Source: a virus (lineage: Duplodnaviria; Caudoviricetes). From it: DNA of 49,198 bases. The DNA is taken from positions 1 to 49,198 of the IMG/VR virus record IMGVR_UViG_3300025247_000004. One strand, written 5' to 3'. Shown here one piece after another: positions 6,243 to 49,198 of the stretch (its first letter is position 1; each line of letters begins with the position of its first letter). Made by a program: the position numbers and the translations under genes. The notes under the pieces were generated by a model. That model worked only from the letters and a program-made list of their open reading frames with translations, was not told the DNA's origin and ran no database searches.

Positions 6243-6661
6243 GAGGTTATGAATTAGCATACATGATAGCTGAAAAGGCTTTTGAGAAAAAGAAAGACCT
6301 ATCTGGAAACCCGTATATGGAACATCTGGAAACTGTTGCTAGTGGATTTCCTGATAATTCAGAACAAAAGACGGTTGCAATCCTACATGATTTATTGGAG
6401 GATTGCCCAGAGTGGAATGAGAAATCACTAAGAGCATTGTTTTATGATAGCATTGTTAATTCCATTGTTGCATTGACTAAAAACGATGATGAATTATATA
6501 CAGATTACATCCACAGGGTATGGAAAGACAATACCGCTAAGAGAGTGAAAATTGCAGACCTAAAACACAATATGGATATAACCAGATTAAACAAAATAAC
6601 CGATAAGGATGTGTGTCGATTGAGAAAATACTTAGAAGCATATAAATATCTGACAAAATGA
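6239..6661 (+). CDS. Stand-alone HD-domain phosphohydrolase (SpoT/Mesh1-like)
   Basis: GNPYMEHL...AILHDLLED...VKIADLKHN motifs. Confidence 0.85.
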   Translation: MRGYELAYMIAEKAFEKKKDLSGNPYMEHLETVASGFPDNSEQKTVAILHDLLEDCPEWNEKSLRALFYDSIVNSIVALTKNDDELYTDYIHRVWKDNTAKRVKIADLKHNMDITRLNKITDKDVCRLRKYLEAYKYLTK

Positions 6662-8149: not shown

Positions 8150-8395
8150 GTGACTAAGCAAGAAATCATAGAAGCACAACTGGAGGCCATTCAGATTTTT
8201 GAGGCCAACAATACCATGATGACAGTCAAGGAGTGTGCTGATTTCTTGGGGTGCAGTGAGGACACTGTTAGGCGTTCAATAAAGTCAGAGACGATCCTAG
8301 CTTATAATATAGGCGGATGGCGAATACCAAAACTACAATTCCATAAAGAACTTATTGAGCGTAGTATTCATTCCACTTCTCTAAAAGCCTCTTAG
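8150..8395 (+). CDS. xis: Excisionase-like HTH protein
   Basis: MMTVKECADFLGCSEDTVRRSI...IGGWRIP; convergent with the integrase. Confidence 0.75.
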   Translation: MTKQEIIEAQLEAIQIFEANNTMMTVKECADFLGCSEDTVRRSIKSETILAYNIGGWRIPKLQFHKELIERSIHSTSLKAS

Positions 8396-9545
8396 CGTGT
8401 TGGTCGGGCGTGACCTTGATGTACTTCAAAAAGTTTTTTTCAGTAGTGTGACCAGTGATCTGCATAATGGTAAGCGTATCAATTCCCATCAAATAATTGT
8501 TGGTAGCGAATGACCTTCTACAAGTATGGGAGCTTACCATTTTCCATTTTTCCATGTAACCTTTTTCCAATCTGTTTGTTTCCGGGTTTCTCCTGGAGCC
8601 ATAAACCTTGTATGTCATTCCAGATTTTTCACAAACTTCTTTAATCACCCTGTTAAATTCCTGCTCACTGCATTTTTCCGGCAATCCATTTTTAATCACT
8701 TCTTTTACTTGATGGTGCAATGGTATCACAACTTTTCTTCCAGTCTTTTGGGTTTCTATTTCAATCAAATCACCTTTAGGCTTGAACTTATCCCAGTCAC
8801 TTACCCTTAATCCCGTCCATAACCCTATAATGGCCCAATCCCTTACCTTTTTCCAACGCGGCGAAAGATCTTTTAGTTTGAAAAGTTTGTTTATTTCTTC
8901 CTCGTTTAAATAAATGCTATCGCTCTTTTCTTCGGGAATGAAGAAGTCCTTTGATAGGATGACCGGATTTACTGGACAACCACTTTTATTGGCTTCCCTT
9001 GCAAATTTCTTGATGTTCTTGATGTATCCGCCTAATGTGTTAGTGGAGTGTTCCTTTTCCGTTTTCAGAAAGTCTATGAAATCAGAATGTAATTTCATGT
9101 CCAAATCCTTGAAGTGTACCGTACCAAATTCATTGAAGAATTTTCTTGTTGTTTCATAGGCTTGTAAAGTTCGATTACTTAAAGGTTTAGTATCTTTCTT
9201 TTTAATCGTACTTGCACTGTCCACATACTGGTCTATAAAGTCGTTGAAGGTAATCACTTTATTAGTGTCGAACTGCTGCTTTAAACCCCTTAACGCGGGT
9301 TCTTTGCCGTTCATTTTACAAGCGGTGATATAGTTATCCACTTTGGACTGAAAAACCCTTAAAACGGCCTCAATCCCTTTAATGCTTATTTGCTTCTTTT
9401 TATTGATGGGCCACTGCCTGTCAAAATCCCATTGGTCAGGACGTATCTTCTCCCCTGTACTTTTCTTGAAATTCCTTCCCTCTATCCTATAAATTAGGTA
9501 TATTGGTGTGGGCTTATCTGCTTTTGGTTCTTTTAGATAAAACAT
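8352..9545 (-). CDS. int: Tyrosine integrase (Bacteroidota type)
   Basis: TGLRVSD, K, SSHTCRRSFAT, TGH...Y catalytic residues; N-terminal arm-binding and SAM-like regions. Confidence 0.95.
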   Translation of the reverse strand: MFYLKEPKADKPTPIYLIYRIEGRNFKKSTGEKIRPDQWDFDRQWPINKKKQISIKGIEAVLRVFQSKVDNYITACKMNGKEPALRGLKQQFDTNKVITFNDFIDQYVDSASTIKKKDTKPLSNRTLQAYETTRKFFNEFGTVHFKDLDMKLHSDFIDFLKTEKEHSTNTLGGYIKNIKKFAREANKSGCPVNPVILSKDFFIPEEKSDSIYLNEEEINKLFKLKDLSPRWKKVRDWAIIGLWTGLRVSDWDKFKPKGDLIEIETQKTGRKVVIPLHHQVKEVIKNGLPEKCSEQEFNRVIKEVCEKSGMTYKVYGSRRNPETNRLEKGYMEKWKMVSSHTCRRSFATNNYLMGIDTLTIMQITGHTTEKNFLKYIKVTPDQHAKRLLEKWNEYYAQ

Positions 9546-43047: not shown

Positions 43048-43680
43048 TTAATTGTTTGCATTATAAAATGCGTATGCAAAACCTAGTGGGGTTTTACTCC
43101 TTTCATTTTTTGTTTTTTGGCTTTTACCTCCAAGTTTTTTGAATCCAGGATATTCCTTCTCAAAGGGCTCCATGAATTTCTTTTCCGGAATATTAAAATC
43201 ACCCCACAACCAAGTTTGTTTATTATATCTACTATCGTTAGGATTTGGGTCGTAACCTGCGTAGTCGCATGGATTGAATTTATGTTTTACATCCCCAAGC
43301 CAAGGATTTAGTTTATGAATCCTGCTCATTGGATTTTCCAACTGCCAGAAATTCAAAACGTTCAAGTCCTCAAAAAACTCAATAATCTCCTTTGTTTTCG
43401 ACACAAGTTTTTGCGATGCTTCAGTTCTCCCATCAACATCTTTAGCTTTAAAATGTTTTGCTCCGCTAATGGCATAATCTGTACATGGTTGCATAGCTAT
43501 AATACCTACTTCAGGCAAAGCTCCATGTTCCATAAACCCTAAATACCAAGATGCGTAATGCCATTTAAGAACATCTATTCCATGTTGAATATCAACTTGC
43601 TTGACGATCCAACCGTTTTCCTTGTACGGCCTGGAGGCATTTCCGGTGTAGTCATAAAGAGAAATCAATATTTTCTTCAT
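43048..43680 (-). CDS. Orphan DNA cytosine-5 methyltransferase-like protein
   Basis: Variant motif I (SLYDYTG), PCT catalytic motif, LENP motif VI, K.T.LWG.F and RS.TP.GFA.AF. Confidence 0.78.
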   Translation of the reverse strand: MKKILISLYDYTGNASRPYKENGWIVKQVDIQHGIDVLKWHYASWYLGFMEHGALPEVGIIAMQPCTDYAISGAKHFKAKDVDGRTEASQKLVSKTKEIIEFFEDLNVLNFWQLENPMSRIHKLNPWLGDVKHKFNPCDYAGYDPNPNDSRYNKQTWLWGDFNIPEKKFMEPFEKEYPGFKKLGGKSQKTKNERSKTPLGFAYAFYNANN

Positions 43681-43819
43681 TATACTTTGTCTTTTATCCG
43701 TTAATGGCATCTGAAGCACAGGAACCGTAAAACTCCATGAACTTTTCAAATGATGTCCATTTGCTCTCTAGGTACGTGTATATTGTTTTTAGTGTTCTCA
43801 TTGTGTTTAATTTTAATTG

Positions 43820-44491: not shown

Positions 44492-44580
44492 CAAATGTAT
44501 AATATTGTACATTAATATCCAAATATATTTTACATTTTTTTACATTTTGCTTGTTTTTAACGTATATTATTGTACTTTTG
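44492..44580. promoter_or_regulatory. Divergent promoters with operator TGTATAATATTGTACA (44496-44511)
   Basis: Leftward TACATTTG (44492-44499) with TTTG 20 nt upstream; rightward TACTTTTG (44573-44580). Confidence 0.7.
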
Positions 44581-44676
44581 GATTGTCGTTGGTCGAGGAC
44601 GATGGGAAAAATTTAAGTGTGGGTAACACGAAATAAGAACCCCTGACAATCTCGACCGTTGTACAGGGGTTTTTTT
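44581..44676 (+). ncRNA. Short leader RNA/attenuator
   Basis: 5' GATTGTC and GGTCGAG are complementary to GACAATCTCGACC in the terminator hairpin AACCCCTG/CAGGGGTT-Tn. Confidence 0.55.
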
Positions 44677-45039: not shown

Positions 45040-45675
45040 ATGAAAACACTTTTTATCGCATTTTTTTGCATTACAACGGGTTTGACCGCTCAAAAAACAT
45101 CAGAAATAGATTCAATTACCTATAATGAAATGAAATCCCTTTTAAATTCAAAAGACTATAAAAACAGAGTGGATGTTAAAAACTACAAGGCAATCAATGG
45201 TAATTGGTTAAGTATTGGAGATACCTTAGAGATAGGGCCACCAAGTAACCCAAACAGTACAATGGCAGGTTATGCCGGAGGCTCCAACGTTGCAACACAT
45301 AGTTTTATTTTTTTAGGTACGGGTGCTGCTGCCCTTACTGGTACTTCCATGATGGGAAACGAACACATGACAGGTGACAGGGCTTTTATTATTGAAATGG
45401 AAATGGCCAGAGGCTCAAAAAAGCAGGATTATGAAGTGCTTATCCATTTAAATAGGCTTGGTGGCGGCAGGTTTGTTAACATAAAGAAACTTGCAAGGGC
45501 CAATATAGACCAAGCACTTGAAACAGGCGAAATAATAGATCCTAACGCTCCAATGTCAAGGGAACAGGCAATAAAAAAATTGAAAGAGGCAAAAGAACTC
45601 TTAGATATAGGTATGATGGAGAAGGAAGATTTTGAAAAATTAAAGGAAAAGCTGGAACCAATTATAATGAATTAG
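45040..45675 (+). CDS. Secreted protein with C-terminal SHOCT domain
   Basis: Signal peptide ...GLTA|Q; AIKKLKEAKELLDIGMMEKEDFEKLK. Confidence 0.8.
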   Translation: MKTLFIAFFCITTGLTAQKTSEIDSITYNEMKSLLNSKDYKNRVDVKNYKAINGNWLSIGDTLEIGPPSNPNSTMAGYAGGSNVATHSFIFLGTGAAALTGTSMMGNEHMTGDRAFIIEMEMARGSKKQDYEVLIHLNRLGGGRFVNIKKLARANIDQALETGEIIDPNAPMSREQAIKKLKEAKELLDIGMMEKEDFEKLKEKLEPIIMN

Positions 45676-45843
45676 GGAAAACCCATAGTTTTTTTAAGGT
45701 TTTCATGCAATCGTAAGAAAAATAAACCTTGTATATTGTAGGACTTTCAAAGTTGATAAAACTTTGATAACTCCCCCAGCCTACAATACTATAACATATT
45801 GAAAATAGGTAATTTAAGGTCTTAACCTTTAAATTATCTTAAG

Positions 45844-45996
45844 ATGAAAAAAGTACTATTCGCATTGATGCTGTTATTTGCAGGTTCTGTGATCACATCA
45901 TGCACAAACGACCAAACAGAAGATGAAATTGAATTTCTCGCAATTGACAAAGATAAGCAAGAGTGCACAGGTTGCGACGATAATGGTAGTGAGTAA
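45844..45996 (+). CDS. 50-aa lipoprotein/peptide precursor
   Basis: MKKVLFALMLLFAGSVITSC|TNDQTEDEIEFLAIDKDKQECTGCDDNGSE; clean signal plus lipobox; below the ORF-track cutoff. Confidence 0.85.
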   Translation: MKKVLFALMLLFAGSVITSCTNDQTEDEIEFLAIDKDKQECTGCDDNGSE

Positions 45997-46513
45997 CATT
46001 ACTATTATCGGCATAAGCCGTTTTACTTACATTATAGTGGACAAGTACTTTGACCGTGAAGGTGACTTCCTGGGCTTTAAGTGGTTGTCCACTGCTTTTT
46101 GGAATACAGGTGTTGAGCTTTTCACCATTAATATCGGATTGCTTATGTATTACAGCACTTTCTTTATGGAAAAGAGTGTAAAGCCATTATTTAGGGGTGT
46201 ATCTTTTTTAGTGGTTGCAATCGGATGCTTTTTTATGTCATGGATTTTATTTGACGATACTGGTATAACCAATTCATTGGAGTTAATTTTTTCAACCGTT
46301 ACCGGATTGTTTACGGCTCATATAGCAATATCGATGTACAGATATATGATAAACTACATGGAGGGTTTAAAGTTCTCTATTCGTGAGCTTATCCATGTAA
46401 TGGTAACTATTGTTCCAACTTATTTTGGTATTGAACTCAATGATATAGAAGTTAATGATTATGAAGAGGTCGTAGTATGGCCCACATTAAACAAAGTAGG
46501 AGATGCAACGTAA
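45983..46513 (+). CDS. About 4-TM membrane protein with cytoplasmic tail (start moved from 45923)
   Basis: Hydrophobic segments; ATG at 45983 overlaps the end of the peptide gene. Confidence 0.75.
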   Translation: MVVSNITIIGISRFTYIIVDKYFDREGDFLGFKWLSTAFWNTGVELFTINIGLLMYYSTFFMEKSVKPLFRGVSFLVVAIGCFFMSWILFDDTGITNSLELIFSTVTGLFTAHIAISMYRYMINYMEGLKFSIRELIHVMVTIVPTYFGIELNDIEVNDYEEVVVWPTLNKVGDAT

Positions 46514-46682
46514 AAAATTAATCCAGAAATTAAAAGATCAGAACCTCATTAAAGATGACGAGGTTTATAGGCTTGTCGTTGAGCATGACAAAAAAGAACT
46601 CGAGAAAGTAAAATCTGATTTCGATAACAAATTCAAAGAACTAAGAAAAAAAGGTAAACTTGATTTTCTTGGATTATCCTAA
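46503..46682 (+). CDS. 59-aa charged helical protein
   Basis: MQRKKLIQKLKDQNLIKDDEVYRLVVEHDKKELEKVKSDFDNKFKELRKKGKLDFLGLS; overlaps the upstream stop and the repressor stop. Confidence 0.7.
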   Translation: MQRKKLIQKLKDQNLIKDDEVYRLVVEHDKKELEKVKSDFDNKFKELRKKGKLDFLGLS

Positions 46683-47023
46683 AGTTTCTTTTTTCCTTCT
46701 ATAATGTCTTTTGCTATATCATAACTCTTGATATATACCTTACGGTGAAAATCCTCATGTGACATAAATTCGTCAAAATGTTTCACCACAAAAGGAAGTA
46801 CCGATTCCACGGTATGACCTTCTTCACTTTTTGCAAGGCCACTCAACTCTTCTGGAGACCTTGAAAGCACACTTTTTACAAACTCAATTTTAGAATCAGG
46901 GATAGGAACATCGCCTTTTATCCAATTATATACCGTTTGACGGCCTACTCCTAAAACTTTAGCAGCATCCACTTTGCTCAATCGGCTCTTATCCAAAAGT
47001 ATTTTAAACTCTTTATTATCCAT
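46679..47023 (-). CDS. XRE/CI-like HTH repressor without S24 peptidase domain
   Basis: LSKVDAAKVLGVGRQTVYNWIKG HTH; divergent from the early operon. Confidence 0.8.
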   Translation of the reverse strand: MDNKEFKILLDKSRLSKVDAAKVLGVGRQTVYNWIKGDVPIPDSKIEFVKSVLSRSPEELSGLAKSEEGHTVESVLPFVVKHFDEFMSHEDFHRKVYIKSYDIAKDIIEGKKKL

Positions 47024-47058: not shown

Positions 47059-47102
47059 TGTACAATTATATTTGCAATTGTACAATATTGTACATATATT
47101 CG
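47059..47102 (+). promoter_or_regulatory. Early rightward promoter with palindromic operator TGTACAATATTGTACA (47079-47094)
   Basis: TTTG (47071)-N20-TATATTCG (47095); perfect 16-bp palindrome in the spacer. Confidence 0.75.
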
Positions 47103-48826: not shown

Positions 48827-49198
48827 ATGAAAACTAAAATACAGATAAAAACAGTATTTGGCAAATTGCTTTTTGAACACGAATCAGAGAACAACTCCAC
48901 TAAAAAAACATTGGAGCAAGCCAGAAAAGAAGGGGCAAACCTACAAGGGGCATACCTACAATGGGCAAACCTACAAGGGGCAGACCTACAATGGGCAAAC
49001 CTACAAGGGGCAGACCTACAATGGGCAAACCTACAAGGGGCAGACCTACAATGGGCAAACCTACAAGGGGCAGACCTACAAGGGGCAAACCTACAAGGGG
49101 CAGACCTACAAGGGGCAAACCTACAAGGGGCAGACCTACAAGGGGCAAACCTACAATGGGCAAACCTACAAGGGGCAAACCTACAATGGGCAAACCTA
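48827..49198 (+). CDS. Pentapeptide-repeat protein, N-terminal part (continues across the contig ends)
   Basis: ATG at 48827 gives MKTKIQIKTVFGKLLFEHESENNSTKKTLEQARKEG followed by A(N/D/Y)LQ(G/W) repeats, open to the end; missed by the ORF track. Confidence 0.9.
   Translation, partial: MKTKIQIKTVFGKLLFEHESENNSTKKTLEQARKEGANLQGAYLQWANLQGADLQWANLQGADLQWANLQGADLQWANLQGADLQGANLQGADLQGANLQGADLQGANLQWANLQGANLQWANL
48935..49198 (+). repeat. 15-bp tandem repeat GCA(A/G)ACCTACAA(G/T)GG
   Basis: Directly visible; the same unit occurs at 1-173. Confidence 0.95.

Follow-up and report, generated by a model that had tools for sequence, protein, structure and literature searches.

The window, meaning the whole 49,198-nt stretch of viral DNA analysed here, is the genome of a temperate tailed phage, in which integrase, terminase subunits and an M15 endolysin are matched by Pfam, and it carries a four-gene cassette that is very probably a peptide-sensing regulator of the repressor encoded within it. 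The cassette comprises, in order, a lipoprotein-type peptide precursor, a four-transmembrane (4-TM) protein, a small protein designated C and a convergent XRE repressor (Table 1), and lies between a leftward operon (from 44116 down) and a rightward early operon (from 47127). We judge it somewhat probable, from sequence comparison, that these parts constitute a peptide/membrane-receptor/antirepressor relay exerting cell-to-cell control over lysis and lysogeny. The cassette is real, widespread and not found in print, and its function is strongly suggested by the comparative data. An earlier note on this DNA had described three overlapping genes convergent on a repressor; all four open reading frames were located as described, and they are not chance, because the arrangement recurs in a prophage of Flagellimonas sp. 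SN16 (locus L001) and at more than 100 other loci. As that prophage is the nearest named relative of the cassette, the host of the window phage is likely a member of the Flavobacteriaceae.

Table 1. Coordinates of the cassette and associated features in the window.
Feature	Position	Strand	Remarks
Phage integrase	8352..9545	-	Pfam PF00589, PF13102; marks a temperate phage
Predicted left operator	44496..44511	.	Copy of the palindrome with one mismatch; overlaps a -7-like box for the leftward operon
Conserved upstream region, probable promoter and leader for the three genes	45667..45843	+	Similar in L001; several other contigs match
Peptide precursor, 50 aa	45844..45996	+	Lipoprotein (type II) signal up to Cys20, acidic spacer at 21-32, core predicted to begin at Ala33
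4-TM protein, predicted receptor	45923..46513	+	Start at ATG 45923 (196 aa, likely) or ATG 45983 (176 aa, possible)
Predicted core, Ala33-Glu50	45940..45993	+	D-K anchor, CTGC particular to its class; also codes for the N-tail of the TM protein; cleavage inferred
Small charged protein C, 59 aa	46503..46682	+	Predicted antirepressor or adaptor; overlaps the TM stop by 11 nt
XRE-type repressor, 114 aa	46679..47023	-	HTH and family-specific helical C-terminal domain (CTD)
Predicted right operator	47079..47094	.	Perfect 16-bp palindrome; beside a TAnnTTTG -7-like box at 47067

The precursor displays the lipoprotein signal that had been read from it previously, with a lipobox, ITS, immediately ahead of Cys20 and then the acidic spacer. 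These properties extend to its relatives. Among 114 precursors a Ser, Gly or Ala precedes the lipobox Cys in 111, at least two Asp or Glu residues occur at positions +2 to +8 after the Cys in 107, and the mature part has a median net charge of -9, being net positive in none; the lipobox is kept in nearly all, the Cys being missing in L012/L052. The spacer has a median length of about 15 residues and the predicted core, of which about 12% is hydrophobic, spans 10-20 residues across the relatives. The acidic run is reminiscent of the lipoprotein export signal (LES) of Bacteroidetes, a polar residue followed by acidic residues just past the lipidated Cys (PMC5080379), although the LES is there defined on folded surface lipoproteins and the CTNDQTEDE of the window is no exact match to the forms QKDDE, SDDDD or SDDFE given in that account (PMC5080379). 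What the anchor profile shows to be conserved is the motif x-[I/T/P/S]-D-K, after which the tail varies. The CxxC proposed earlier to cyclise the peptide is present in the window (C41-C44) but is not a family feature, and a ring of this type was rejected as a general property, as only 9 of the 114 precursors have CxxC and 17 have a Cys pair of any kind. Cores with a Cys pair cluster on a quick tree (3 changes versus 12.5 in shuffled data), a result that speaks to clustering only. Tandem cores were detected by script in 5 of the 114 precursors, with L219 and L220 appearing alike by eye, and the precursor gene is duplicated in L083 and L085. Searches of Pfam, PHROG and NCBIfam gave no match to the precursor near cut-off.

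The survey of relatives covered 131 distinct TM loci, the window copy included, over half of them from one genus. A precursor was parsed in 115 of these and overlaps the TM gene in the +1 frame in 114, the remaining one looking mis-parsed. Compared with synonymous recoding, the +1 frame is open beneath the whole core at 103 of the 114 loci (65 expected), and an in-frame ATG with an open run precedes the precursor stop at 112 (81 expected), both counts being drawn from related loci rather than independent trials. Third-position T is depleted far more strongly in the cores (0.32 versus 0.51 expected) than in the spacers (0.45 versus 0.52), again across related loci. These overlap statistics indicate that the TM gene likely starts inside the precursor gene, in the window probably at 45923. 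A start in this position would tie the ligand to its receptor.

The AlphaFold model of the TM protein (mean pLDDT 95) agrees with the topology deduced earlier from the letters, with four helices and a soluble tail. In the AlphaFold2 model a hairpin follows TM1 and a long TM4 runs into the cytoplasmic helical tail; the charges fit an N-in, C-in orientation, with loop 2 and the region after TM4 rich in Lys and Arg and loop 3 acidic. No family in Pfam (searched also with 32 members at E up to 0.05), PHROG or NCBIfam matched the protein. Foldseek returned a best E of 0.66, with no clear match to a solved chain; comparison with solved chains (VIA) reached Z 7.5 at best (rmsd 4.8-6.2 over 102-111 residues), a score typical of ordinary helical bundles. 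ESM Atlas searches produced only leads below 0.9. A weak search for longer TM forms found none. One relative, P0114, has a C-terminal extension of about 60 residues that does not match the C profile. Fusions are informative with respect to function. Among the best 150 matches the TM domain is joined to HisKA_3-HATPase in one Tenacibaculum protein (P0089), and at four loci it is fused to an AraC domain, the output domain replacing the tail; one of these, L123, has an intact peptide. At three repressor-less loci AraC genes stand in place of C. The N-terminus of the AraC protein is 42% identical to C over 26 aa at L216 and, in the truncated L161, 60% over 47 aa, these being the two loci compared. 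An intact precursor is absent from 6 of the 7 AraC loci. Since its TM domain is fused to histidine kinase and AraC domains, the 4-TM protein is likely a sensor.

As the earlier note had it, the stop of the 59-aa gene overlaps that of the repressor; the overlap measures 4 nt. C was parsed at 84 of the 92 repressor loci (one a mis-parse), with a C-like open frame at the other 8, and the two stops lie within 30 nt of each other at 76 of 85 loci. Pfam, PHROG and NCBIfam gave no match to C near cut-off. The C family alignment has a mean identity of 17%, and this poor alignment may hide the true coupling of C. At seven loci (L184, L192, L204, L205, L207, L208 and L213) the C-terminus of C resembles, by eye, the first helix of the CTD of its own repressor; the likeness of the L184 type is comparable to SinI/SinR, without family-level support. 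Mimicry among the TM tail, C and CTD received no support from profiles (hhalign probability under 1%).

LexA- and CI-like autocleaving repressors bear a C-terminal S24 peptidase domain. In contrast, and in accord with the initial reading, the 114-aa repressor matched HTH families only, gave no S24 match, and has an all-helical AlphaFold model that indicates the absence of such a domain. The longest relative has 174 aa. The CTD profile matched 5 of 60 XRE loci in 10 genomes; all five lie beside the cassette and all were training members. Fold searches returned nothing clear beyond the HTH: the AimC structure (9iaq) and SinR-SinI appeared at a non-significant E of 0.06-0.09, likely reflecting the common HTH, with HigA2 also among the top rows. 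In both the window and L001 the repressor and the rightward early operon diverge, and no second repressor-like gene was apparent in the immunity region of the window. Two palindrome matches in the window are weak evidence alone, as 9 of 100 shuffles reach two. The right palindrome is exact in L001 and has one mismatch in L137, which have related HTHs, compared with 4-7 mismatches at seven loci with other HTHs (one, L133, mis-parsed). For the left operator, L001 has two near-copies in the corresponding position. Both candidate operators lie at a box resembling the -7 consensus TAnnTTTG. A search for a common upstream motif across loci was not convincing. That the palindrome tracks the HTH and sits at both early promoters supports the view that the 114-aa protein is the immunity repressor of both arms, acting through these candidate operators.

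Iterated profiles recovered 22 close TM relatives and then 455 clusters at 50% identity. In a family sample 27 of 401 genomes contain a relative, repeat draws of this sample being essentially the same genomes and not independent of it; for three single genera the figures are 15 of 101, 5 of 19 and 50 of 91. The last figure refers to the genus of G232, where genomes have up to 16 matches each, tandem cassettes (L196, L201, L210, L190) and peptide-less TM copies; 30 loci returned from this genus and 40 further regions, part of all its matches, were taken into the survey. Of the 125 loci that extend 800 nt or more downstream, 92 show the three-gene synteny beside a convergent HTH repressor that had been set beforehand as a check; a further 16 have a small gene but no such repressor, and 17 lack both. 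Two further full cassettes, L268 and L272, stand beside XRE genes; their TM proteins have diverged beyond the reach of the search threshold, and prevalence is thus underestimated. The TM protein of L272 is 28-31% identical to one encoded in three genomes at a conserved site on the chromosome; the link of this chromosomal clan to that of the window is weak and transitive. Clear mobile contexts comprise the window, L001, L005, L021 and L064 (phage genes), L054 (relaxase), and L056 and L057 (integrase). The cassette is also present at ICE-like, integrase-linked and apparently chromosomal loci, many copies not being clearly phage; among loci of at least 6 kb, 10 of 41 with a repressor and 2 of 18 others yielded a recombinase. 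No other cassette was found in annotated phage records or the scanned viral contigs; seven viral-contig loci were rejected because they matched in the HTH only. In view of the sparse recombinases and the absence of another viral carrier from these records, the system may be a general Flavobacteriaceae signalling module used by this phage.

Several loci extend this picture. The earlier note mentioned small acidic lipopeptides beside sensor and regulator genes in Flavobacteriaceae, and such precursors were seen directly at L095, L097, L098 and L071, between LytTR regulators and TPR-bearing proteins; the row at L071 reads peptide, TM, TPR histidine kinase and response regulator. The conserved chromosomal locus represented by L084, L092 and L085 combines genes that by eye resemble those for TsaE and alanine dehydrogenase with a 4-TM gene and a similarly built precursor, the latter present twice in L085. 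Its TM clan recurs in the full cassette L272, and the locus is a candidate host peptide-sensing system. The loci L020, L069, L103, L034 and L111 lack a repressor but retain the peptide, the TM protein and a C of reduced length; L020 and L069 have chromosomal neighbours in common, which points to retention in the absence of a linked repressor. At L019, L054, L055 and L057 the genes past the repressor and a small divergent gene encode large proteins that appear to be secreted, some of them resembling Rhs by eye, and the cassette may regulate them.

Co-variation between peptide and TM protein was assessed at 103 non-redundant loci, 11 of the 114 having been dropped as short or near-identical. With the signal and spacer held, the peptide core correlates with the TM core at a partial r of 0.52, a value reached in none of 499 permutations, which ignore relatedness in a set with over half of its loci from one genus; the corresponding values for the spacer and signal are 0.04 and -0.02. 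Linkage and common ancestry inflate this co-variation, as the core overlaps the TM gene. A test proposed in the earlier note was whether the C-terminus of the peptide varies with the outer loops of the receptor, and it does: the partial r is 0.45 for the outer face, 0.13 for the inner face and -0.03 for the tail, although windows on the outer face hold more class signal in general and are also better correlated with the remainder of the TM protein. The region of distal outer loop 3 reaches 0.37, compared with 0.15 and 0.04 for its flanks, a rise that distance alone does not predict, whereas in a nearest-neighbour test the outer and inner faces are tied (0.58 versus 0.58).

A second block emerges at the output end. 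At 73 complete loci the correlation is 0.41 between the tail and the CTD, 0.16 between C and the tail and 0.13 between C and the CTD (each 0 of 199 permutations), while the HTH is nearly independent (0.05 with the CTD and 0.03 with C). These two co-varying blocks place break points inside genes, such that the units are leader; core and TM core; tail, C and CTD; and HTH. Natural swaps agree with these break points. G337 has four cassettes in which near-identical leaders precede three distinct cores, carried by as many TM classes. In L004 the peptide (94%) and TM protein (89%) of the window are retained, whereas C (22%), the repressor (21%) and the operator are swapped. The 59-aa protein, which may be an antirepressor or co-regulator as first suggested, co-varies with the CTD less strongly than the tail of the receptor does, and direct binding of receptor to repressor fits at least as well. 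Of the scheme originally put forward, an exported peptide, a receptor and an antirepressor, the fusions support the receptor.

In the mechanism we propose, the precursor would be lipidated at Cys20 and its export aided by the acidic spacer, after which cleavage ahead of the D-K anchor would free an 18-residue core with a C41-C44 disulfide. The core would re-enter the periplasm, possibly via a SusCD-type importer, and bind the outer face of the 4-TM protein, the signal passing down the long TM4 helix. Oligopeptide import by Bacteroidetes has reportedly been shown for RagAB; no protease or importer gene is encoded in the cassette, and the requirement that an acidic 2-kDa peptide cross the outer membrane twice is a burden on the model. 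When peptide is lacking, C would bind the CTD and block the repressor, so that the early promoters fire and lysis ensues; when peptide is present, the tail would hold C and the repressor would restore lysogeny. This direction, in which peptide favours lysogeny, is adopted by analogy to arbitrium, where peptide in the medium promotes lysogeny, and we prefer it only slightly to the reverse. In a close variant the tail would sequester the repressor directly, with C as a modulator.

An alternative, which we regard as unlikely, is that the lipopeptide stays anchored and binds a receptor in the same envelope, reporting lipoprotein trafficking, envelope damage or kin co-infection instead of population density. 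The retention of the lipobox and the lack of a protease or importer in the cassette are in keeping with such a relay, the co-variation and fusions fit it equally well, and the translational overlap would fix the stoichiometry of the pair. Tandem cores behind one anchor and duplicated precursor genes, however, are better explained by a common diffusible ligand, as are the many specificity classes, several per genome, and the peptide-less TM copies. It is distinctly improbable that the cassette is instead a host or island quorum-sensing module for adjacent genes, such as those for secreted proteins, and in this phage a passenger or a tuner of accessory genes that does not govern the choice between lysis and lysogeny. 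Its abundance in the genus of G232, the many loci without a nearby recombinase, the distant TM clan at a conserved chromosomal site and the absence of a second cassette from the viral-contig scans and phage records are as this explanation would predict, but in the window and L001 the repressor is divergent from the rightward early operon with candidate operators at both early promoters, and the immunity region revealed no other repressor-like gene.

A toxin-immunity or superinfection-exclusion unit, in which the peptide or TM protein would kill or block entry and the repressor would only autoregulate in the manner of SdpC/SdpI/SdpR or a HigA-like antitoxin, is slightly more improbable. Toxin-immunity pairs also co-vary, SdpI is described as both immunity protein and transducer (PMC2910880), HigA2 is among the non-significant fold rows, and the precursor signal has a weak NCBIfam match to EexN lipoproteins (E 0.034). 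This match, however, spans the signal region only and scores 14 bits against a cut-off of 33, the mature peptides are acidic with few hydrophobic residues in the core, and the fusions to kinase and AraC domains point to sensing. Scarcely credible is a +1 ribosomal frameshift that fuses precursor and TM protein into a lipid-anchored product, or a precursor that acts as a translation-arrest leader gating TM synthesis. The near-universal +1 frame and the Pro-Gly-rich C-termini, one with RAPG (L008), would be compatible with either, but a frameshift at the precursor stop was rejected as no slippery site there is common to the loci; in addition, the in-frame ATG before the stop is in excess, the N-in topology conflicts with a fused exported N-terminus, and the cores track the outer face.

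Returning to the relay through a diffusible peptide, its logic is already known, while its parts and wiring are new. Among phages, signalling by peptides is well documented in the arbitrium systems of Bacillus. The extended arbitrium system of Bacillus phages (AimP/AimR/AimX/AimC/AimL) brings together a secreted peptide gene, a receptor, a small antirepressor, a short repressor and a divergent early gene in one module (10.1101/2025.11.23.689978), the combination predicted here. In extended systems the antirepressor binds the oligomerisation domain of the repressor; C co-varies with the CTD and not with the HTH, although the link between tail and CTD is stronger. The cassette had been likened to arbitrium but considered unrelated to AimP and AimR, and this distinction holds: AimR is a cytoplasmic TPR receptor with an HTH, while the receptor here is a 4-TM bundle without a TPR or HTH match. 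Precursors of arbitrium and other RRNPP systems have an ordinary signal peptide and a mature peptide of 6-10 residues, a pattern that the cassette does not fit, its precursor having a lipobox, an acidic spacer and a predicted acidic core of 10-20 residues rather than a hexapeptide. Control of C would, moreover, be post-translational, and the host is Gram-negative. SdpC/SdpI/SdpR of Bacillus subtilis would be similar in having an extracellular peptide, a membrane transducer that lacks a kinase and a sequestered cytoplasmic regulator (PMC2910880). The cassette differs in that its ligand lacks toxin-like features, a small protein is added, the repressor is XRE rather than ArsR and the setting is a phage immunity region; no SdpI-type domain was matched by Pfam in 32 TM members (E up to 0.05) or by NCBIfam. 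SOS-independent small-protein modules are reported in Vibrio prophages, and in VqmA-Qtip of VP882 the repressor is reportedly inactivated by the product of a small ORF. That system would resemble the cassette in its small product directed against a repressor and its Gram-negative host, but its input is a host small-molecule autoinducer with a cytoplasmic reader, compared with a phage-encoded peptide and a membrane protein. Prophage LuxI/LuxR systems of Phaeobacter, in which a prophage-encoded signal is said to promote lysogeny, would be similar in that effect and in their marine Gram-negative host, but employ a small-molecule autoinducer and LuxR rather than a ribosomal peptide and a membrane receptor. 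The literature searched, mostly outside subscription papers and supplements, contained no published description of the cassette, no peptide-based counterpart in Gram-negative hosts and no peptide quorum sensing in Bacteroidota.

There is about an even chance that Flavobacteriaceae and their phages, ICEs and islands use one phylum-specific peptide language, in which D-K-anchored, lipoprotein-derived peptides address a new family of 4-TM receptors wired to repressors, AraC proteins or kinases, and similar peptides are read by TPR sensors. In temperate phages this would represent an independently evolved Gram-negative form of lysis-lysogeny communication with many specificity classes, on which host copies may eavesdrop. 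If true, the model would explain the switching of S24-less repressors in marine flavobacterial prophages and add a new family of membrane sensors. The cassette supplies a candidate ligand, receptor, effector and operator together with matched cognate and non-cognate pairs, and its occurrence in the prophage of a named isolate, Flagellimonas sp. SN16, makes it testable with synthetic peptides.

The surroundings of the cassette contain further features. Upstream, at 45040-45675 (+), is a gene for a 211-aa protein with a signal peptide and, at its C-terminus, a SHOCT-like motif; Pfam gave nothing above cut-off for the protein. The accessory slot that it occupies is variable, the gene being replaced in a related contig, and RNase H is found there in L001 and L149. 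Between the left operator and this slot, a hairpin with a flanking T run (44632-44675), kept in L001 near 6530-6575, is possibly a terminator or small RNA element. The leftward operon encodes a DNA methyltransferase (43048-43749, -; phrog_757, E 4e-39), with a similar gene in the rightward operon of L001. Finally, a pentapeptide-repeat gene (48827-49198, +) leaves the right end of the window and an open frame (3-413, +) is present at the left end, which suggests that the genome is circularly permuted.
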